A DNA stretch of 64,000 nucleotides from Bacteroidales bacterium. GTDB lineage: Bacteria > Bacteroidota > Bacteroidia > Bacteroidales > JAFGUD01. The DNA lies in assembly GCA_016936595.1 (NCBI GenBank), contig JAFGXO010000171.1, forward strand, positions 1,584 to 65,583, written 5' to 3'. Below are positions 3,104 to 18,556 of the stretch, piece by piece; the first letter of the stretch is position 1; every line of letters starts with the position of its first letter. The notes below the pieces were generated by a model that saw only the letters and a list, made by a program, of their open reading frames with translations, did no database searches and was not told where the DNA came from. A program made the position numbers and the translations under genes.

Positions 3104-3118
3104 TTTTTTAAATTTTAA

Positions 3119-3208
3119 TTAAGTTTTTAAAGTTTTAAAGTTTTTAAAGTTTTTAAAGTCTGCTGAAAGTTAATTTTCTTTCAACAATATAACTTTAAAC
3201 TTTAAACT
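3119..3208. repeat. Short tandem (AGTTTTTAA x4) and inverted (AACTTTAAACTTTAAACT) repeats in the beta-gamma intergenic spacer
   Basis: Read directly: AAGTTTTTAAAGTTTTAAAGTTTTTAAAGTTTTTAAAGTC, then hairpin TGAAAG-TTAATTTT-CTTTCA, then AACTTTAAACTTTAAACT, which is the approximate reverse complement of the left repeats. Confidence 0.7.
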
Positions 3209-6464: not shown

Positions 6465-7169
6465 CTACATATTTTGGAATTGTTGTCCCCACTCTAATCT
6501 TTTTTTCCGCACTTCGTAAGCTGTTAAAGGTCTGAGTTTTATCAACAAATCGTATGCTTCTTGTAAGTCGTATCCTAAAAACACAAGTAAAGCATAAGTA
6601 ATCATACCGGTTCGGTGTAAGCCGGCAGAACAATGTATATATATTTTATTGCCGGCTGTTAATTCGGATTTAATAATGTTGAATGTTTTTAAAATCAGGG
6701 GTAATAATTCCTTAGAAGGAGGATTTCCATTTTCGAGAGGTAGCCATAACCAATTTATTGACAAAGATTGAAATTCTTGTCCGATTTTTGATGCTCCTTC
6801 TCGTTCAGACAGCAAACTTAAAGCAGTATTAGTTCCTTCGTTTTTTAATGTGTTAAATGTTCCGTTTTTTTTTCCGGGAAGATGCCCGATTTTTAAAAAG
6901 CCTTTATAAATTTTAACCCAATAACTATTTTTATCTGTAATTAGTGGACGTTGCACCAACTTAATTCTCGGTTTTTTTATATCAGGTGCAAAAGTTTTTT
7001 TAAATTTAAATAATTGTCCAATTAGAGGTGCTAATTTTTCTCGTTGAGACGTGTTATTGCTAATTATTTCGCGAAGTTCTTCAATTAAGGCGTCAATTTT
7101 AGCTAAATCCACAACATCATCGAGCTGAATCTTTTTTACTTTTTCAAAAATATCAACCTCATGTTTCAT
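6465..7169 (-). CDS. Cys-based protein phosphatase (dual-specificity / PTP-like, CX5R)
   Basis: 234 aa. The active-site P-loop IHCSAGLHRTG (HCxxGxxR[ST]) lies in the C-terminal half. The N-terminal ~90 aa are unassigned. Confidence 0.8.
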   Translation of the reverse strand: MKHEVDIFEKVKKIQLDDVVDLAKIDALIEELREIISNNTSQREKLAPLIGQLFKFKKTFAPDIKKPRIKLVQRPLITDKNSYWVKIYKGFLKIGHLPGKKNGTFNTLKNEGTNTALSLLSEREGASKIGQEFQSLSINWLWLPLENGNPPSKELLPLILKTFNIIKSELTAGNKIYIHCSAGLHRTGMITYALLVFLGYDLQEAYDLLIKLRPLTAYEVRKKRLEWGQQFQNM

Positions 7170-7211
7170 TTTACTTTTTTTACAAAAAAATAGTTTACTC
7201 AGCTCTTAAAA

Positions 7212-7742
7212 CTACAAGTCTAAGATATAATTTTCGTTATTCAAATCATTGATGTAATTTTGGATAAAATTTGTGAAAGAATTAGCAACGAGTGAACGTT
7301 TTGGACTGTCGTGCAACACACGAATAACTTGTCCATAAATACCGTCGGTATCCGGATCTAAATCAATACAATAATGATTTCCGTAGCCATCGTAAGTAAA
7401 GGGTATCCACATTGGATTCCACCAATTATTTTTTATGCCTTTATCGGGGTTAGAATTTAATTGTTCAAATTTTTTATTATCAAACAATTGTTTCCATATT
7501 TTCCATTCAGCAACAATACGATTTAACGACAAAAGTTCCTCACCATAAATAATATTATCGGTCATTTCGTCTTGACCATTATGAATCATATAAAATTCAA
7601 TAAAATCATCAGGAAATTTTACTTTTAATTTTGCTTCGGCATCGGTTATTTCGTGTTCGCCGGCGGCATAGTTAAAAGTTTCTTCTAAATCAACATCATA
7701 TTGATAAAGTTCATTAAAAAGTTGATCCCATAAGTTTTTCAT
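7212..7742 (-). CDS. SMI1/KNR4 (SUKH-1) family protein
   Basis: 176 aa. AEAKLKVKFPDDFIEFYMIHNGQ...WIPFTYDGYGNHYCIDLDPD...GQVIRVLHDSP is the characteristic SUKH-1 pattern. Confidence 0.85.
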   Translation of the reverse strand: MKNLWDQLFNELYQYDVDLEETFNYAAGEHEITDAEAKLKVKFPDDFIEFYMIHNGQDEMTDNIIYGEELLSLNRIVAEWKIWKQLFDNKKFEQLNSNPDKGIKNNWWNPMWIPFTYDGYGNHYCIDLDPDTDGIYGQVIRVLHDSPKRSLVANSFTNFIQNYINDLNNENYILDL

Positions 7743-7864
7743 AACATAAAATTTAAGTTCTGTAAATGTCGAATATAGCTATAACTGCATGAAAATCAGA
7801 GCCAAAACACATACAGGAGTTTTACAAAAAGGAGCACAATATAAATATTTTTTAAAAAATTTAA

Positions 7865-8989
7865 TTAAATTATTTTTTCAAGATAAGAACTTGTTCCGGT
7901 TTTTAATATTTCTTGGATTACTTTAGCCGTAACATCACCTATTCCGTTAATGCTTGCAATTTGTTTTGGTTGAAGAAATTGTATGTTTTGTTCTATTTTA
8001 GATATTTGATAAGCTGCGTAGCCATATGGATTTTTATGTCCTCGTAATTTTAACAAGTAATCTAAATGCTCAAGAATAACCACAACTAAATCATTTTTAG
8101 AAACAAAACGATAGTATAATTTAGGAGGAATTCGCTTTGGAATTTTAAGATTTGTTGCAATTTTATCAAACAAATAATGAGCAGATTGGTTATAATCTTG
8201 GTGAGCTTCGCCCCATTTACTATTATGTTCGTAAATAATATCAAACTGAGTTGTTAAATCGGAAAAATGTTTATTTATTACGTTCATAAAATAATCTTTT
8301 TGTCGCCCCGGTTTAAGTGTCATTGTTCCAAAAATTACAAAGTCAATACCTACCTCTTTTCCTCTCCGAAGAGTTTCTTCCACCATTTTAGGACTGTCTG
8401 TAATAAATGGGATTAACGGCATTAAAAACATACCAACCGAAATACCGTTTTGTTTAAGCTTTTTAATTAATGTAAATCGTTCAGAAGGGCTTGCTACACC
8501 AGGCTCAAAAATTTTGCTGATATTATCGCTTGCCGACGAAAAACTAAAGCTAACAATTGCTCTGCTTTGATTGTTTATTTTTTTAATGATGTCAATATCT
8601 CGCTCTACGAGAGTTGATTTTGTTAAAATATGTACGGGATATTTGTATTTGTACAAGAGTTCTAATGTTTTACGTGCAAGTTCATATTTTTTTTCTGCCG
8701 GTTGATACGAATCACTAACTCCACCGCCAAGCATCATAAAACTTCGGGGCATGGGTTTTCTCTTTCGTGCCGGATCTAATTCTTTTTGCAAAATTTCAAT
8801 TGCATTTGTTTTTATAGAAATATCTCTGCCAAAATCTCCTTCTACGTAATAACCTTCGGCTCTGCCATCACAATAGGCACAATTATGTGAACAGCCTCTA
8901 TATAAATTTAGCCCGTAATGTGTTAAAAACCAACTTTCAATTTTTTTATTTTTTCTTAGAATTGTTTTTGCTTGTGTTTCGGTTATCAT
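7865..8989 (-). CDS. Radical SAM protein (SPL/PA0069-like) with a C-terminal helix-hairpin-helix
   Basis: 374 aa. It has the CxxxCxxC cluster motif CSHNCAYCDG near the N-terminus and a C-terminal IASINGIGDVTAKVIQEIL HhH-like motif. Confidence 0.8.
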   Translation of the reverse strand: MITETQAKTILRKNKKIESWFLTHYGLNLYRGCSHNCAYCDGRAEGYYVEGDFGRDISIKTNAIEILQKELDPARKRKPMPRSFMMLGGGVSDSYQPAEKKYELARKTLELLYKYKYPVHILTKSTLVERDIDIIKKINNQSRAIVSFSFSSASDNISKIFEPGVASPSERFTLIKKLKQNGISVGMFLMPLIPFITDSPKMVEETLRRGKEVGIDFVIFGTMTLKPGRQKDYFMNVINKHFSDLTTQFDIIYEHNSKWGEAHQDYNQSAHYLFDKIATNLKIPKRIPPKLYYRFVSKNDLVVVILEHLDYLLKLRGHKNPYGYAAYQISKIEQNIQFLQPKQIASINGIGDVTAKVIQEILKTGTSSYLEKII

Positions 8990-8990
8990 C

Positions 8991-9052
8991 TGTTAGGGTT
9001 TTGAGAGTTTCAATTTTCGGGTTTCGGGTTTCGGGGTGCGGGTTTCGGGGTT
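8991..9052. repeat. G-tract intergenic element (TTAGGGTTTT...GGGTTTCGGGTTTCGGGGTGCGGGTTTCGGGG)
   Basis: Five G3-4 runs separated by 3-4-nt loops at 9019-9050, in an otherwise AT-rich spacer. It shares TTAGGGTTT, TTTCGGGTT and TTTCGGGGTG blocks with the element at 17181-17237. Confidence 0.75.
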
Positions 9053-9069
9053 CATATTTTTGTGTCATT

Positions 9070-9897
9070 TTAATAATCGTGTCTGTAGTAAATTCGGTTT
9101 TTGTATTTGTATTTATCAATTTTAAGAATATCCATAACTTTTAATGGTTCATTTTTAACTAAATTTCTGCAGGCTCTATATGCTATCCAATATGAATTTT
9201 TATTGCCGGAATCTGCTAATTTTTGCACAATTTTGTAAACTCTTTCTTTATCAATTCTTGCCCAATCACTTAAATTATTGCCAACAGACGAACGCGGATA
9301 ATCTTTTGATTCTGCAAATAAGTTTTTAATAACTTCAAAACAAAATTCAGGATTTTTTTTCAGCCAACTATTATCAGCAACGGGTCTGATAGATTCGCTT
9401 GCAAACCGCCTTGACATTGGATTATCTGAAGTAACTTGCTTTAAATACCATTTTTTCATTCTATCGGGAAATGTTTTTACAAGTTTACGAACAAAGCCGG
9501 CTGAGCATTCTCTTACTTCCCATTTTTCATCTGTTGCCGCTTGTTCAAAAATTGGTAAAACTTCTTCAATTTTTTTTGTTTCAACGCCATAAATTGAAAT
9601 TATCTGAACGCCAAAACTTCTTACAAATTGCTCAAATTGAATATTTGTATATAAATTAGAAGCAAATTCAAGCACATCTATATCATTTTGTTTAAGCATA
9701 GGATACATTTCAATACCCAATTTTTTAATTATACCATATCTACCGTACGAAATACGCTTTTTTTCAGGAATATCATTTCTAATTATTGAAATAAGTTTGT
9801 CTATTTCAGCTGCAACTTCATCAATAGTCAATACATTTATATGTTTAACTATAGTTTCTGCTAATTTTAAATGAGCTTGATTTATTAGTTGAAACAT
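9070..9897 (-). CDS. HEAT-repeat DNA alkylation repair-like protein (AlkC/AlkD superfamily)
   Basis: 275 aa, all-helical repeat character. DEKWEVRECSAGFVRKL and SSVGNNLSDWARIDKERV resemble conserved blocks of DNA-alkylation-repair (COG4335-type) proteins. The assignment is by memory of motifs only. Confidence 0.55.
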   Translation of the reverse strand: MFQLINQAHLKLAETIVKHINVLTIDEVAAEIDKLISIIRNDIPEKKRISYGRYGIIKKLGIEMYPMLKQNDIDVLEFASNLYTNIQFEQFVRSFGVQIISIYGVETKKIEEVLPIFEQAATDEKWEVRECSAGFVRKLVKTFPDRMKKWYLKQVTSDNPMSRRFASESIRPVADNSWLKKNPEFCFEVIKNLFAESKDYPRSSVGNNLSDWARIDKERVYKIVQKLADSGNKNSYWIAYRACRNLVKNEPLKVMDILKIDKYKYKNRIYYRHDY

Positions 9898-10018
9898 GAA
9901 TTTATATTATCTTTAAAGTTTAATTATCTGAAAATAAAGATATCTAAAAATAAACTAAATTCAAATAAAAATATGTTTATCATCGTAAAAATATTTTTAG
10001 ACATCAATTTAAAAACAA

Positions 10019-12505
10019 TTAATCGTTAACTCTCCAAGCCTTCCAAACATTTTGAATTGCGGGATTAATATTAACGTTAGGAGTTTGGGCTTTAAACCCA
10101 TTTTGAGGATTTAAAGTAGTGGTATTAACCTCATTACTTATTTGATCAAATAATTGACCATAAGTTAAATTACCCTTAGTATTTTGCAAAGTTTTTAACA
10201 AATAATAAGTAAATAAACCGTGCTGTTTATCAATATATTCTTGCGAAATTTCTTTTTCGGAAGAAGCAGCAAAAACCACCAAATTAGAACTAACACTATT
10301 AGCATTTGGCGGACGATATAAACCGGTTTTTGCATTAACTAACAACTGACCACTTTTACCACCACCACTAAAACAAGCATCAACAAAAACAAAAACTTTT
10401 TTGTTTCCATCAGGGCTAATTTGAGCATAAAAATCGCCTAATTTAATTCCAAAAGTTCCTATATAATCAGATTTTACACCAACAGGCACTAAATACGATT
10501 CACCTTGGTCGTCTTGAGTTCCATGACCACTATAATAAACATAAAATTCGCTTCCGTCTGGTTTACTTTTAATAAGTTTTGCAAAATTATCAATATAAAG
10601 TTTAATGTAAGTAGCATTTGCATCTTCGATATAATAAATATGATTAGTATTATCCGGAACGCCCAAAACATTAACGCAATACTGTTTAAAAATTGAAGCA
10701 TCATTTATTGAAAAAAGAATATCAACCATATCGGAGCCATGTTCAATATAATGAGAATTACCAATAATTAGAGCATACCGATTGTTATTTGCAGACCCTG
10801 CTTGAGGTATATTAACATCAACATCGCTCTGGCCAACAACAACTTGAGTGTTATCATCAATTGTTGGATCATTTGTTGGAGCGGGCACAATATTTACAGG
10901 ATCAAAGTTATTAACAACCACTATTGAATTAAAAACAACAGGAATACTTGCATCGTAAAAATATGTTTTATTGTTTACAGGATTAGTTATAGTTGCCTGA
11001 TAAATCTCTAATTTGTCTTCGGACGTTAAATTATATTTCATGTCGGTAAAAGTAAGTTTTGAAAAACTATCTTCAAAAATAGGAGCTTCGTTGATAGGAA
11101 CCGGCACGTACATTGGATTAAAATAAGTTAAAGAAATTTTAAAAACTTCGCTTTCCGAATCATAATCAAGTGTAGAAAGTTTAATATCTTTAATAAAAAT
11201 TGGTTCGCCAATTTGGCCGAAAAAAGTATCGGTAAGTTCAGTTATTTTTTGTTGACGAGTATGGATTGTTACCCTAAGTTGATAATCTTCAAGCTTTTCG
11301 TAGCGTCCTTTTTGTTGCCAATCATTAATTTTATTTTCGATGTAAGTAGTTGCTCTTTCGCGAATAGAAAAGTTCAATTTTACTAACCATAAATCTTTTT
11401 TCCCTGCCCCCCTGGATTTTGTATGTCCAACAACAGCCAAACCACCGTCAAAAGTTTTGGTAAATGCAGTAGCCTTTTCTTCTTCGGAACCACCAAAAGT
11501 ATTTTCCCACAACAAATTACCCATGTTATCTATTCCTAAAATCCAATAGTCCCAATCGCCTGCCCCCGAAGATTTTGTACTTCCGGCAATTAAATACCCG
11601 TCACCATTTGGAATAATGCTACAAAGTTCATCATTTTGTCCACCGCCATAAGTTTTATTCCAAATTTTATTTCCGTTATCATCAATTTTTATAAGCCAAC
11701 CATCAATCCAACCTGCTCCATACGATGAAGTATTCCCTGCAATAAGATAACCTCCGTCGTTAGCTTTTACAACATAAACAGCTTCGTCGCCACCACCGCC
11801 TTCTAATGAGAATTCCCATTTTACTGTGCCGACTGCGTCAATTTTTAAAGCATATAAATCAGCAAATCCATCAACTGTTGCTTGGGAATACCCAACAATT
11901 AAGTATCCATTATCCGAAGTTTGGATAATCTTATTTCCAAAATTCTTATATTGACTTTGATAGGATTTTGTCCATTTTTGAGATCCATTTTTGTCAGTTT
12001 TATACAAATTGATGGAATATTTGTCTTCTACAGAACTTGAATTACCAAGCACCATCATACCTCCATCATTTGTATTTATTACATCTAATCCATAATTACT
12101 CTCATATTGTCCAAAACTTTTATTCCACTGATTACCCAAAGAACTGCTAAATTTTAGTAAAGAGATAGTATTCCCATCAACAGAGTTTGAGAAACCAAGT
12201 GTAGCATATCCATTATCAGAAGTTTGTATAACCGAACAATAATTGGCAATAAAAACTCCTCTTGGCGAATTTTCATTTAAAAGATTTCCTTCAATATCGG
12301 TTTTTATTATCCATGGAAGCCATCCAACTCCAATCGATTGATTTCCACCAATAACTAATTCATAGTTTCTACTTTGAATAATTGATGTTGCCGATTGATT
12401 TTTTTTGTCGCCAAAAGTTTTATCCCACTCAATTTGAAGCGAACTTTGCCCCATAACAAAAAAGGAAGAGAACAATAAAAATAAAAAAAATGATAATTTT
12501 TTCAT
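10019..12505 (-). CDS. Secreted beta-propeller-repeat / caspase (peptidase C14) fusion protein
   Basis: 828 aa. Signal peptide MKKLSFFLFLLFSSFFVMGQ. About 7 degenerate ~45-aa repeats follow (xDGGYLIAGxTxSxGAGxxDxWLIKxDxxGNxxW). The C-terminal caspase fold has RYALIIGNSHY, the His dyad residue in YYSGHGTQ and the Cys in FVDACFSGG. Confidence 0.85.
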   Translation of the reverse strand: MKKLSFFLFLLFSSFFVMGQSSLQIEWDKTFGDKKNQSATSIIQSRNYELVIGGNQSIGVGWLPWIIKTDIEGNLLNENSPRGVFIANYCSVIQTSDNGYATLGFSNSVDGNTISLLKFSSSLGNQWNKSFGQYESNYGLDVINTNDGGMMVLGNSSSVEDKYSINLYKTDKNGSQKWTKSYQSQYKNFGNKIIQTSDNGYLIVGYSQATVDGFADLYALKIDAVGTVKWEFSLEGGGGDEAVYVVKANDGGYLIAGNTSSYGAGWIDGWLIKIDDNGNKIWNKTYGGGQNDELCSIIPNGDGYLIAGSTKSSGAGDWDYWILGIDNMGNLLWENTFGGSEEEKATAFTKTFDGGLAVVGHTKSRGAGKKDLWLVKLNFSIRERATTYIENKINDWQQKGRYEKLEDYQLRVTIHTRQQKITELTDTFFGQIGEPIFIKDIKLSTLDYDSESEVFKISLTYFNPMYVPVPINEAPIFEDSFSKLTFTDMKYNLTSEDKLEIYQATITNPVNNKTYFYDASIPVVFNSIVVVNNFDPVNIVPAPTNDPTIDDNTQVVVGQSDVDVNIPQAGSANNNRYALIIGNSHYIEHGSDMVDILFSINDASIFKQYCVNVLGVPDNTNHIYYIEDANATYIKLYIDNFAKLIKSKPDGSEFYVYYSGHGTQDDQGESYLVPVGVKSDYIGTFGIKLGDFYAQISPDGNKKVFVFVDACFSGGGKSGQLLVNAKTGLYRPPNANSVSSNLVVFAASSEKEISQEYIDKQHGLFTYYLLKTLQNTKGNLTYGQLFDQISNEVNTTTLNPQNGFKAQTPNVNINPAIQNVWKAWRVND

Positions 12506-14161: not shown

Positions 14162-15196
14162 TTACAACTTTTTAATATCATCAACAGATAAGCCTGTTTC
14201 TTTAGATATTTCTTCTACTGGTGTCCCTACTTGTAACATCATTTTTGCCATTTTATTTTGAAATGTATGCTTTTCGTGTTCAGCGTTTTCTTTCTCTTGT
14301 AATGCTTTTTCTTTTTCCTGTTGAGCTTTTTCTTTTTCCTGTTGAGCTTTTTCTTTTTCCTGTTGAGCTTTTTCTTTTTCCTGTTGAGCTTTTTGAACTT
14401 CTGTTATCGCCTTTTCTCTTGCTTTCAAAGCCTCTTCTTCTTTCTTTTGAGCCTCCTTCATTTTTTTTATAGCATCATCAATAGCAGAGCGTTCTATTCT
14501 TATTCTATCCCAATAATTATCATAATAGTCCAACTCGTTTTTTGAAAAAGCTGATACTTGCAAATGTTCCAAAGCTTCTTTTATTTCTTCGTCTGCATTA
14601 AAATCTTCATCAACATTGATAGTATTTTCATTTATCTCGGTTAAAAAACGCAACCACAAATTAGTTATTTTCTTTTCTGTAAATGATTTTGGTGTAAACT
14701 TTGGTAGTTCAATAAATATCAATTCAATACCATCAATTACTTCATTAGGAATTTCTTTATGAGCTAATTTATAATGATGATAAAATTTATCTTTATATTT
14801 TTCCTCTGTAAGATAAATATCATCAACTAAACTAAGCCCATAAACGGGCAGTAATTTATCGTATTTACCTCCTCTATCTAACTGTTTTACATACGCTTTA
14901 CCCGAATTAAAAAGCATACGACTCTTAAATGAATTAGTCCAATACATTTGCATTTCCACAATAAACTGTCGGCCAAAATTGTCTGTGCACTTTACATCTA
15001 CCACTGAATGTTTTAATTCGGGAATTTCAGGCAATAACGCAGGATCTTGATAAATTAAACTTTCAATATACTGGTCATCATTTAATGGCAATAGCGAATT
15101 TAAAAAACTTTTCATTATGTTGGCATTCTGACCAAATATTTTACGAAAAGTTAAATCATTTTTTGGATCTAAATATTTTATATTACGAAAGTCCAT
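14162..15196 (-). CDS. Rpn-family recombination-promoting nuclease / PD-(D/E)XK putative transposase with a C-terminal heptad-repeat tail
   Basis: 344 aa. The N-terminus LDPKNDLTFRKIFGQ and the nuclease core VVDVKCTDNFGRQFIVEMQ are typical of the PDDEXK_2/Rpn family. The C-terminus contains (EKAQQEK)x4. Confidence 0.8.
   Translation of the reverse strand: MDFRNIKYLDPKNDLTFRKIFGQNANIMKSFLNSLLPLNDDQYIESLIYQDPALLPEIPELKHSVVDVKCTDNFGRQFIVEMQMYWTNSFKSRMLFNSGKAYVKQLDRGGKYDKLLPVYGLSLVDDIYLTEEKYKDKFYHHYKLAHKEIPNEVIDGIELIFIELPKFTPKSFTEKKITNLWLRFLTEINENTINVDEDFNADEEIKEALEHLQVSAFSKNELDYYDNYWDRIRIERSAIDDAIKKMKEAQKKEEEALKAREKAITEVQKAQQEKEKAQQEKEKAQQEKEKAQQEKEKALQEKENAEHEKHTFQNKMAKMMLQVGTPVEEISKETGLSVDDIKKL
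14305..14388. repeat. Perfect 21-bp tandem repeat x4 (GCTTTTTCTTTTTCCTGTTGA) inside the Rpn-like CDS
   Basis: Four identical contiguous copies were read directly (14305-14325, -14346, -14367, -14388), plus degenerate flanking copies. They are in frame, 7 codons per unit. Confidence 0.9.
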
Positions 15197-15262
15197 TCTG
15201 TTTTTTTACAAAAATACAAAATTTTATTCGCAATTTGTTTTACTTTTGCCAAAATTTTTAAA

Positions 15263-16736: not shown

Positions 16737-17186
16737 ATGAAACTTAAAAAAATACATACAAGCAAATTGATTGAATTTTTCAGCGTTTCGACAATCTACA
16801 GCATTGAGTTACCGTTAATTGAAGCCGGTATTAGTGCCGGATTCCCTTCGCCGGCTGATGATTTTTTAGATATTTCAATCGACTTAAATAAAGAGCTTAT
16901 TAAAAATCCTTCGGCTACATTTTTTGGAAGAGTTAACGGCGATTCTATGAAAGATCTTGGTATTGATGATGGCGATTTACTTATCATAGATAAAAGTATT
17001 GAACCTCAAACCGGTAAAATTGCTGTTTGTTTTATTGATGGTGAATTTACTTTAAAAACTATTCAATTTGAAGCTAATTTATGCTGGCTTGTTCCGGCTA
17101 ACGAAAAATATAAACCTATAAAAGTTACTCCCGATAATGAATTTATTGTATGGGGTATAGTAAAACACGTAATTAAATCTTTTTAG
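16737..17186 (+). CDS. umuD: Translesion polymerase V accessory subunit UmuD (S24 LexA-like peptidase)
   Basis: 149 aa. It has ISAGFPSPADDF, the catalytic Ser in VNGDSMKD and a Lys in GEFTLKT. It lies immediately upstream of umuC. Confidence 0.85.
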   Translation: MKLKKIHTSKLIEFFSVSTIYSIELPLIEAGISAGFPSPADDFLDISIDLNKELIKNPSATFFGRVNGDSMKDLGIDDGDLLIIDKSIEPQTGKIAVCFIDGEFTLKTIQFEANLCWLVPANEKYKPIKVTPDNEFIVWGIVKHVIKSF

Positions 17187-17237
17187 GGTTTCGGGTTGTG
17201 AGCTGCAAGATACGGGTTTTCGGGGTGAGAGGAGAGG
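17181..17237. repeat. G-tract intergenic element, second copy, abutting the umuD stop codon
   Basis: TTTTAGGGTTTCGGGTTGTGAGCTGCAAGATACGGGTTTTCGGGGTGAGAGGAGAGG. It shares sequence blocks with 8991-9052 and fills most of the unusual 107-bp umuD-umuC gap. Confidence 0.75.
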
Positions 17238-17293
17238 TATTCTGGTTTTAAAAAATTGCAAGCTATTGGTTGTTAATTACAAATTACTTATAA

Positions 17294-18556
17294 ATGTTCG
17301 CTTTAGTTGATTGTAATAATTTTTACGCATCATGCGAGCGGGTTTTTCGCCCCGACTTGAATGGCAAACCCGTTGTAATACTCTCAAACAACGATGGTTG
17401 CGTTATTGCCCGAAGCAACGAAGCAAAAGCTCTTGATATTCCTATGGGTGCTCCGGCTTTTAAATTTGCCGAAATCTTTAAACAAAACAACGTTAATGTT
17501 TTCTCTTCTAATTTTGCTCTTTATGGCGATATGAGTGCCAGAGTAATGAATATTTTATCTGAAATTGCTCCCGAAATTGAAATTTACAGCATCGATGAAG
17601 CTTTTCTTAAATTTACAGGTTTCCAAAATTACGATTTAAACGATTACGGTTTAATGATTCGTAAAAAAATACTTAAACATACCGGTATTCCGGTTAGTGT
17701 TGGGTTTGCTCCCACAAAAGCTCTATCAAAAGTTGCCGTTCATGTTGCAAAAAAATTCCCCGAACGAACTAAAGGAGTGTATGTTATCGATAACGAAGAA
17801 AAAAGAATAAAAGCTTTAAAGTGGCTACAAATTGAAGATGTGTGGGGTATTGGACGAAAACATGCCGAAAAATTAAAAAATGTTGGAATCTTAAATGCTC
17901 TTCGATTTACCGAAACATCGGATTCGTGGATAAAAAAACACATGTCGGTATTAGGACTTCGTCTAAAAAATGAACTCCTCGGAAAATCAACTCTTGATTT
18001 AGATAAAGTTAAAAACAAAAAAAGTATAGCCACAACACGAACTTTTGAAAAAAATTATGCCGATTTTGAACTCATAAAAGAACGAGTTGTTACTTTTGCC
18101 GTAACTTGTTCTGAAAAACTACGTAAGCAAAAATCAAACTGCAATTCAATAATGATTTTTTTACACACAAATTGGCACAGAAAAGACTTACCACAAATAA
18201 ACCCAAATATTGTAATACAACTACCCTACCCTACAAACTCGGCTATTGAAATAGCAAAATTTGCCGTAAAAGGATTAAAACAAATTTTTAAAGAAGGATA
18301 TTTATACAAAAAAGCAGGTGTTGTAGTTATGAATTTTACGCCCGAAAATCCACAACAATTATCTATTTTTGAAAACTCAAATCCTAAGCACAAAAAGCTT
18401 ATGAAAACTATAGATCATATTAACAACAATATTGGAGCAAAAAAACTTAAACTTGCAGCTCAGGATTTAGAAAGAACATGGAAAATGAATCAAGAAAAAA
18501 TTTCGCCTCGATACACAACAAAAATCAACGAAATTTTAAAAATAAAAACCGATTAA
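17294..18556 (+). CDS. umuC: Y-family DNA polymerase V catalytic subunit UmuC
   Basis: 420 aa. MFALVDCNNFYASCERVFRPDL...VVILSNNDGCVIARS...YSIDEAF are canonical UmuC/DinB palm motifs. Confidence 0.9.
   Translation: MFALVDCNNFYASCERVFRPDLNGKPVVILSNNDGCVIARSNEAKALDIPMGAPAFKFAEIFKQNNVNVFSSNFALYGDMSARVMNILSEIAPEIEIYSIDEAFLKFTGFQNYDLNDYGLMIRKKILKHTGIPVSVGFAPTKALSKVAVHVAKKFPERTKGVYVIDNEEKRIKALKWLQIEDVWGIGRKHAEKLKNVGILNALRFTETSDSWIKKHMSVLGLRLKNELLGKSTLDLDKVKNKKSIATTRTFEKNYADFELIKERVVTFAVTCSEKLRKQKSNCNSIMIFLHTNWHRKDLPQINPNIVIQLPYPTNSAIEIAKFAVKGLKQIFKEGYLYKKAGVVVMNFTPENPQQLSIFENSNPKHKKLMKTIDHINNNIGAKKLKLAAQDLERTWKMNQEKISPRYTTKINEILKIKTD

Follow-up and report, generated by a model that had tools for sequence, protein, structure and literature searches.

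A heptad-encoding tandem repeat at the hypervariable site of an Rpn-family nuclease gene from a Bacteroidales bacterium

Within a stretch of 64,000 nucleotides from a Bacteroidales bacterium (contig JAFGXO010000171.1 of assembly GCA_016936595.1; hereafter, the window), four perfect copies of a 21-bp unit lie in frame inside a minus-strand gene of the Rpn family of nucleases. The array encodes heptads in a long predicted helix, which joins the nuclease domain to a C-terminal module homologous to the antitoxin domain RpnS, at a place equivalent to the hypervariable site already known in Rpn proteins, and across the family the length of this segment is polymorphic in steps of seven residues. We consider it rather probable that the array is a recent, slippage-driven expansion of heptads, through which the length of the helix would set the pairing between partner proteins.

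Rpn systems have recently been recognised as a widespread defence family composed of a toxin and an intragenic antitoxin, where the number of repeats in a shared helix decides the silencing of the nuclease by the antitoxin fragment. According to Zhong et al. (2023, PNAS, PMC10400941), Rpn proteins (RpnL) are toxic DNA endonucleases, whose C-terminal domain is separately translated from an internal start (M244 in RpnA) to give RpnS, which plays the antitoxin role. The long first helix of RpnS carries a hypervariable four-amino-acid repeat, the number of which differs among strains of E. coli, B. cereus, B. fragilis, C. difficile and L. interrogans. In the case of E. coli RpnC, one extra repeat in one partner only abolishes the inhibition of RpnL by RpnS, and plasmid-borne Rpn was found to give protection against phages (PMC10400941). 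No mention of heptad or seven-residue repeats was found in the main text of that work or in the accompanying commentary.

The repeat array and its host gene

The 21-bp unit GCTTTTTCTTTTTCCTGTTGA occurs in four exact copies, starting at positions 14304, 14325, 14346 and 14367 in an exact-match scan, and together covering 14304-14387. A first-pass annotation of this DNA had placed them one base to the right (14305-14388), and was otherwise borne out in its description of four perfect in-frame units with degenerate copies on both sides, including the translation that it gave. The maximal perfect run with a period of 21 extends to 91 nt and 4.33 copies (14304-14394); when the 64-kb window was scanned for perfect periodic runs of 30 nt or more, with periods from 4 to 99, this was the only one found. 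Tandem Repeats Finder (TRF) delimits a wider array (14271-14394, period 21, 5.9 copies, 89% matches, score 192), clearly the top one in the window. Degenerate copies flank the perfect block at 14283-14303 and at 14430-14450, with 15/21 and 16/21 matches, respectively. The whole array is in frame within the minus-strand open reading frame (ORF) 14162-15196, its translation includes QKAQQEKEKAQQEKEKAQQEKEKAQQEKEKALQEKENAEHEK, and the linker to which it belongs (residues 246-315) is made up of E18 K17 Q12 A10 of 70 residues. Two plus-strand ORFs across the repeat (14221-14472 and 14321-14545) were rejected as low-complexity artefacts of the reverse frame.

The protein encoded by this gene (Table 1) is identical to the NCBI entry MBN2664138.1, from a Bacteroidales bacterium metagenome-assembled genome (MAG). 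It matches the Pfam family PF12784 (PDDEXK_2) over residues 11-240 (E=2.3e-39, 135.9 bits against a cut-off of 27.4) and the Rpn family TIGR01784 (E=4.9e-29, 102 bits against a cut-off of 52.1), so that the assignment to Rpn/PD-(D/E)XK nucleases made in the first pass holds above both curated cut-offs. The accompanying link of the family to recombination is outdated, as the array falls in a region of Rpn toxin/intragenic-antitoxin proteins already known to be hypervariable (PMC10400941). In an alignment of 83 homologs, D67 and E81 are invariant and Q83 is nearly so, all three residues being located in beta-strands of the structural model described below. From what is known of the family, we take these residues to be the catalytic ones. 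A motif scan upstream of the gene detected a promoter box of the Bacteroidetes -7 type (consensus TAnnTTTG), and a tblastn search of the 64-kb window revealed no paralogous Rpn gene.

A long helix ending in an RpnS-like module

An AlphaFold2 (AF2) model of the full-length protein, built from 83 sequences, reached a mean predicted local distance difference test (pLDDT) score of 83.9. The predicted fold starts with an alpha/beta domain, goes on with an uninterrupted helix spanning residues 219-322, and ends with two short helices (327-334 and 338-343). The repeat is therefore predicted to be helical, as had been proposed in the first pass, with pLDDT values of 86-97 across it. When its sequence is arranged seven residues to a line, the helix keeps an unbroken heptad register over about 100 residues, with Ala at one heptad position through ten consecutive heptads (A242 to A305). 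A hydrophobic seam precedes the array (I239, I243, M246, L257, I264 and V267) and another lies beyond it (L299, F312, M316, M319 and V323).

In the alignment of homologs, the array falls in a variable-length, E/K/A/Q-rich linker, which runs from the nuclease domain to a conserved module of some 35 residues at the C-terminus. As 46 residues, the conserved module among them, follow the perfect copies, the array is not the tail of the protein for which it had been taken, and constitutes an internal helical linker with an RpnS-like helix-turn-helix (HTH) module after it.

Several searches converge on the nature of this module. When a profile of 55 homologous C-terminal modules was compared with the PDB, the crystal structure of E. 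coli RpnA-S (7th0) was obtained at E=2e-6, and in a pairwise alignment, window residues 314-341 (NKMAKMMLQVGTPVEEISKETGLSVDDI) correspond to 7th0 residues 17-44 (LHIAKIMLESGVPLADIMRFTGLSEEEL). A separate AF2 model of residues 306-344 had a pLDDT of 89, and Foldseek placed 7th0 at the top of 350,542 PDB chains for this model, with a template modelling (TM) score of 0.83, a root-mean-square deviation of 0.9 Å over 36 columns and a Foldseek probability of 0.99. The fold matches ranked after 7th0 were the DNA-binding HTH domains of serine recombinases/resolvases and of the IstA and Tc3 transposases. Precomputed annotation of homologs assigns the module to Pfam PF27070, named HTH_Rpn_C. With the full-length model, Foldseek gave weak matches only, the best one to McrBC at E=0.028, and it was the short C-terminal model that recovered 7th0. 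The C-terminal module is homologous to the RpnS domain, a three-helix fold with a long first helix.

The profile search also returned a much stronger match (E=2e-27) between window residues 316-344 and PDB 8vd6, labelled 'CAP REPEAT', which was discarded, since 8vd6 is a de novo designed protein (ProteinGenerator), and the match does not count as evidence of homology. This case calls for caution in sequence searches of the PDB, where idealised helical repeats of designed origin can score above true homologs.

The alignment with 7th0 also fixes the position of the array with respect to the published repeat. If the numbering of 7th0 starts at M244, the insertion point H261 of RpnA corresponds approximately to K315 of the window protein, at the C-terminal edge of the heptad block.

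Two classes of repeats at one site

In distant Bacteroidales homologs, TRF and the translations of related loci revealed repeats of 12 nt, encoding four residues with Gly (GRAE, GMEI, GMKE), and closer homologs carry repeats of 21 nt (loci in Table 1). Both types share the same flanks, YDKYWD..RE.. on one side and AK.ML..G.....I...TGLS..EI on the other.

Tandem repeats were sought in the linkers of the nearest 104 homologs that contain the anchor motif. Strong repeats were present in 46 of them, with a period of 7 in 35 cases, 14 in 7, 21 in 3 and 11 in 1, and period-4 repeats were found in none of the 104. As a control, not one of the 2,080 shuffled linkers attained the threshold, and only 17% of the best periods obtained by chance were multiples of 7. 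The sequences of the units are unrelated among these close homologs (KAKSEAD, AQQKAEK, QKREKEA, KEEAEKQ and EQTQAQM, among others), which indicates that the expansions are independent.

An exhaustive search collected 5,429 proteins at E<=0.001, and 96 near-full-length representatives at 50% identity were inspected. Strong repeats with periods of 4, 8, 12 or 16 residues were observed in 24 of these representatives, with periods of 7, 14 or 28 in 17, with a period of 11 in 3, and with a period of 15 in 1, so that the heptad class is common and extends beyond one clade. Alpha-helical coiled coils classically show periods of 7, 11 and 15 residues, a correspondence that points to a constraint on helical phase.

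Some proteins of the collection depart from this architecture. Long heptad arrays, such as KETEIQH x9, followed by coiled-coil-like ends and no recognisable C-terminal HTH module, occur in P0199, P0244, P0251, P0253 and P0299, which may perhaps represent a third Rpn architecture.

Copy-number variation and age of the array

The first-pass annotation had anticipated that the number of copies would vary between strains, and at the level of the family this is strongly upheld. When homologs were clustered at 90% identity or more and the members aligned, the length of the linker differed among the members of 17 of the 19 multi-member clusters, and the internal gaps in the linker almost always amounted to 7, 14, 21, 28, 35 or 42 residues. 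Only a gap of 18 residues departs from this, together with gaps of 3 and 25 residues that accompany a replacement of the C-terminal module. In one cluster, the unit KAKSEAD is present about 2, 5 or 7 times, depending on the allele. As a control, clusters with weak-repeat representatives were examined, and 8 out of 10 still vary in length, hence no dose-response with the perfection of the repeat was seen.

The clearest single comparison is that of two loci, L021 and L022, which share their neighbouring genes. Identity between them reaches 96.5% over the Rpn genes and 97.9% over the 3 kb upstream, and the sole indel measures 42 nt, exactly two units, and falls inside the array.

For the window locus, no same-species allele was found: its cluster at 90% has one member, scans of metagenomes and of species-representative genomes gave nothing closer than about 60% identity to the window protein, and a look-up of contigs encoding the exact protein returned no record. 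The age of the array can be approached through two orthologs, L001 and L002, with 81-82% protein identity; their flanks can be aligned with those of the window array, and most of the differences there are synonymous. In both orthologs, however, the repeat block differs in sequence and in length (proteins of 323 and 330 aa against 344), L001 having its own unit in 2.7 copies, while the four units of the window show zero substitutions among them. Taken together, the identity of the units and the different block of the orthologs between conserved flanks place the expansion, or a homogenisation, as recent relative to the divergence of the species, in agreement with the first pass.

The C-terminal module is variable as well. 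In three clusters it has been exchanged between otherwise near-identical proteins, which fits the high variability published for RpnS. These clusters (P0080, P0069 and P0071, including P0127-P0133, P0164, P0165 and P0167) gather proteins at least 90% identical overall with quite different HTH-like modules, and suggest a cassette-like replacement of the RpnS-type domain besides the change in repeat number. Among other cluster members, P0168 is a frameshifted read-through of the repeat region (KKKPKN...), and P0122 and P0123 come from one gene that is broken into two ORFs on a contig of 1.5 kb; both cases correspond to occasional pseudogenisation or sequencing errors.

A candidate internal start

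An in-frame ATG at M246 could serve as the start of an RpnS-like product in the window gene. The putative product would be 99 aa long and would hold the whole repeat. Eight A residues precede this ATG, which is conserved in L001 and L002. Short cluster members of 97-113 aa were also considered as stand-alone RpnS-like proteins, and were rejected as N-terminal fragments.

Proposed mechanism and alternatives

Most likely, the identical 21-bp copies would misalign during replication slippage or unequal recombination, with the gain or loss of whole heptads. As 21 is three times seven, every step of one unit keeps the reading frame. From helix geometry, each heptad step, of two turns, would keep the phase of the helix to within about 20 degrees and alter its length by some 10 Å. 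If E. coli RpnC is taken as a model (PMC10400941), the length of the helix would decide which partner helices pair in register, either RpnL with RpnL or RpnL with an RpnS product, and length alleles would provide a self-specific control of the toxic nuclease. A role of the window gene against phages may also be conceived.

A number of observations weigh against this interpretation. The copy number rests on one MAG assembly, and as the collections searched hold no same-species allele, variation at the window locus is extrapolated from homologs. Lys (a) and Ala (d) take the core heptad positions of the perfect units, which means that a pairing interface there would be weak, and the expanded block looks more like an in-phase charged helical spacer than a classical coiled-coil core. 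The original qualification of the repeat as coiled-coil-like is thus right regarding the continuous heptad register, and fails regarding the residues at the core of the perfect units. As for the candidate internal start, a Met occupies the M246 column in only 8 of the 104 homologs, and the motif scan detected no perfect TAnnTTTG box in the 250 nt upstream of M246, so that a repeat-containing RpnS product is hypothetical. Moreover, the neighbourhood of the gene is mostly composed of housekeeping and DNA-repair functions, is stably syntenic, and is not a clear defence island; association with defence genes or recent mobility is a statistical tendency of Rpn systems and not a strict rule.

Some of these same points would suit a neutral spacer, that is, a low-complexity expansion that the protein tolerates in a linker formed by a charged single alpha-helix, where slippage would alter the length without functional consequence. 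The richness in E, K, Q and A, the Lys and Ala at the core positions and the lack of a defence-island context are what such a spacer would look like, and near-identical proteins do tolerate large differences in length (from 2 to 7 units in one cluster). However, 45 of the 46 independent expansions have periods of 7, 14 or 21 (the remaining one, 11), against the 17% expected by chance; preservation of the frame alone would permit any multiple of 3 nt, yet the periods come in sevens, and helical phase thus appears to be constrained. The linker between the same conserved flanks is also kept in every homolog examined, and a change in repeat number has a demonstrated effect in E. coli (PMC10400941), all of which makes an inert spacer unlikely in our opinion.

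A different function for the length of the helix would be that of a molecular ruler, where the C-terminal HTH module would bind DNA and the helix would space the recognition site from the nuclease active site, so that the number of heptads would shift the cleavage position or target spacing, like the TAEL repeats do in the specificity subunit of EcoR124I/II. The HTH domains of serine recombinases and of the IstA and Tc3 transposases that rank after 7th0 in the fold search argue for it, together with a sub-threshold HTH_7 match in the homolog P0020, and Zhong et al. themselves liken the Rpn repeats to EcoR124I (PMC10400941). The same paper, however, characterises RpnA-S as a protein-protein dimerisation and antitoxin domain, its main text reporting no DNA binding, and describes the cutting of pUC19 by purified RpnA in vitro without mention of a recognition sequence (PMC10400941), and we judge a ruler to be quite improbable. 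That the number or the perfect identity of the copies could have been made by the metagenome assembly of a repeat is suggested by the single MAG contig, as a second copy of the allele is in no collection searched. Such an artefact seems very improbable for a perfect run of 91 nt, below ordinary short-read length, which is anchored by flanking degenerate units and has counterparts in many independent assemblies from different sources. Regarding an on/off contingency locus, in which slippage would toggle the gene in and out of frame (phase variation), the frameshifted product of P0168 through the repeat region is a point in its favour. Nearly all of the observed indels are nevertheless whole multiples of 7 aa, and as changes of whole 21-nt units never shift the frame, on/off switching is effectively refuted and we give it hardly any credence.

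The reading of the array as heptads whose number sets partner pairing can be extended to the whole family, in a proposal that we advance tentatively and would sooner doubt than assert. The hypervariable site of Rpn proteins could be a phase-locked helical length code rather than a plain tetrad repeat, written by independent lineages only in units of 4n with Gly or of 7n, occasionally of 11 or 15, and heptad helices of at least 100 residues would set the pairing between toxin and antitoxin or between toxin and toxin. If true, each strain would bear a private and rapidly evolvable lock on a toxic nuclease, possibly without a separate RpnS in Bacteroidota. A structural rule would also be implied, under which phase-preserving insertions are tolerated and define specificity, and phase-breaking ones are not. 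The existence of a second common class of repeats at the same site, of 7 aa and rich in E, K, A and Q, whose copy number changes between close strains, takes the principle of length variation beyond the published tetrads. From the point of view of annotation, it accounts for the differences in length of Bacteroidota genes annotated as 'putative transposase' between near-identical strains.

Gene neighbourhood and other features of the window

Table 1. Features of the Rpn gene and loci carrying the two classes of repeats (positions are those of the window)
Feature	Position	Strand	Description and basis
Rpn-family (PDDEXK_2) gene	14162..15196	-	344 aa + stop; PF12784, TIGR01784; identical to MBN2664138.1
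PD-(D/E)XK nuclease domain	14477..15166	-	Residues 11-240; Pfam match, alignment columns, alpha/beta fold in AF2 model
Single continuous predicted alpha-helix with continuous heptad register	14231..14542	-	Residues 219-322 (~104 residues); AF2 pLDDT 86-97 across repeat
In-frame ATG (M246), candidate internal start (hypothetical)	14459..14461	-	Position parallels RpnA M244 (PMC10400941)
E/K/A/Q-rich heptad-like linker, with degenerate units flanking the perfect copies	14252..14461	-	Residues 246-315; TRF and register table
Perfect period-21 run	14304..14394	-	Four units 14304-14387 + 7 bases; residues 268-298; heptad QQEKEKA x4 (271-298)
RpnS-like three-helix (HTH-like) module	14165..14281	-	Residues 306-344; profile against PDB, alignment, AF2 model, fold search
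Bacteroidetes-type -7 promoter box TATTTTTG	15209..15216	-	Motif scan; 11 nt upstream of the ATG of the gene
12-nt repeat loci			Prevotella L015, L019; Phocaeicola L016, L018; L004, L006, L007, L014
21-nt repeat loci (closer homologs)			L001, L003, L010-L013

Around the Rpn gene lie umuDC and genes for an rlmD-like methyltransferase, a beta-propeller protein and a protein with a caspase domain, along with radical SAM and alkylation-repair-like genes. Synteny with L001 takes in umuD/umuC, the rlmD-like methyltransferase, the beta-propeller and the caspase-domain neighbours, and is partial with L002. A scan with PADLOC detected, about 6.5 kb off the Rpn gene, a SUKH-type immunity protein of the candidate family PDC-M40A. 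Its other matches were to a caspase domain in the gene at 10019-12505, to mad2/MTase in the methyltransferase next to the Rpn gene and, weakly, to OloA. These PADLOC matches around the Rpn gene formed no recognisable defence system, and on the Rpn gene itself PADLOC gave nothing beyond spurious coiled-coil matches to JetC.

The methyltransferase that flanks the Rpn gene stands beside an operon (16737-18556) of a umuD-like S24 peptidase and a umuC-like Y-family polymerase, which is kept in L001. Farther away, the cluster at 6465-12505 has the flavour of a polymorphic-toxin/immunity locus. It encodes a DSP-PTPase phosphatase (PF22785, 'polymorphic toxin system'), the SUKH/SMI1_KNR4 protein of immunity type that PADLOC matches to the candidate PDC-M40A (E=4e-53), and a secreted protein of 828 aa whose C-terminal domain is a caspase (C14). 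In L001, the genes for the caspase, radical-SAM and SUKH proteins are all conserved.

Two other repeats of the window are intergenic. A (TTTCGGG) x5.6 repeat with G runs occupies 9015-9053, in the short gap between two minus-strand genes, radical SAM/HHH (7865-8989) and a DNA_alkylation-like one (9070-9897), and contains at least 4 GGG runs on the plus strand, which may form a G-quadruplex. A second tandem repeat, (TTTTTAAAG) x6, lies at 3105-3159 with AACTTTA x2.6 close by (3191-3208), and minus-strand ORFs are present on both sides. A scan of the whole window (1-64000) against Rfam at gathering thresholds detected no RNA family.

Comparison with known systems

The continuous helix rich in E, K, Q and A, with Ala every seven residues, recalls alanine zippers and the charged single alpha-helices of the ER/K type. 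The heptad array of one homolog, P0007, passes the Pfam model Alanine_zipper (PF11839; 31.2 bits against a cut-off of 23.1), whereas the window protein has no PF11839 match. Pairs of the type E(i)-K(i+4) are also scarce in the window linker, with 2 in 70 residues.

With simple-sequence contingency loci, the array shares the slippage-prone perfect tandem repeats in a coding region, here within a gene family linked to phage defence. The unit of the window is, however, a multiple of three, and its changes would result in protein length variation and not in on/off switching. A parallel is also found in the TAEL repeats of the HsdS subunit of EcoR124I/EcoR124II, which are also in-frame tandem repeats in a helical spacer, with a copy number that changes via recombination or slippage. 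TAEL repeats alter a geometric property of a nuclease complex, and their likeness to the Rpn repeat has been proposed (cited in PMC10400941). They differ in belonging to another protein family, in having a 4-aa unit and in their effect, which is exerted on the length of the DNA target spacer.

The closest relative of the system described here is the Rpn toxin/intragenic antitoxin itself, with which the window gene shares the protein family and the homologous three-helix C-terminal module. In both cases, the tandem repeat occupies the corresponding site, which lies in the N-terminal portion of the long first helix and directly precedes the (I/M)AK(I/M)ML core, the repeats are in frame and lengthen the helix, and their number is variable among near-identical homologs, whose C-terminal module is highly variable and swapped between otherwise near-identical proteins. 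There are also clear differences. An ATG-initiated RpnS including the repeat is not conserved among homologs, and the window helix is far longer, with about 104 residues. The published unit has 4 aa (12 nt) and typically contains Gly (GRAE, KGIE), whereas that of the window has 7 aa (21 nt), is rich in E, K, A and Q, and is free of Gly. The four-amino-acid hypervariable site of Rpn proteins was therefore known, and what is new here is a step of seven residues at that same site.

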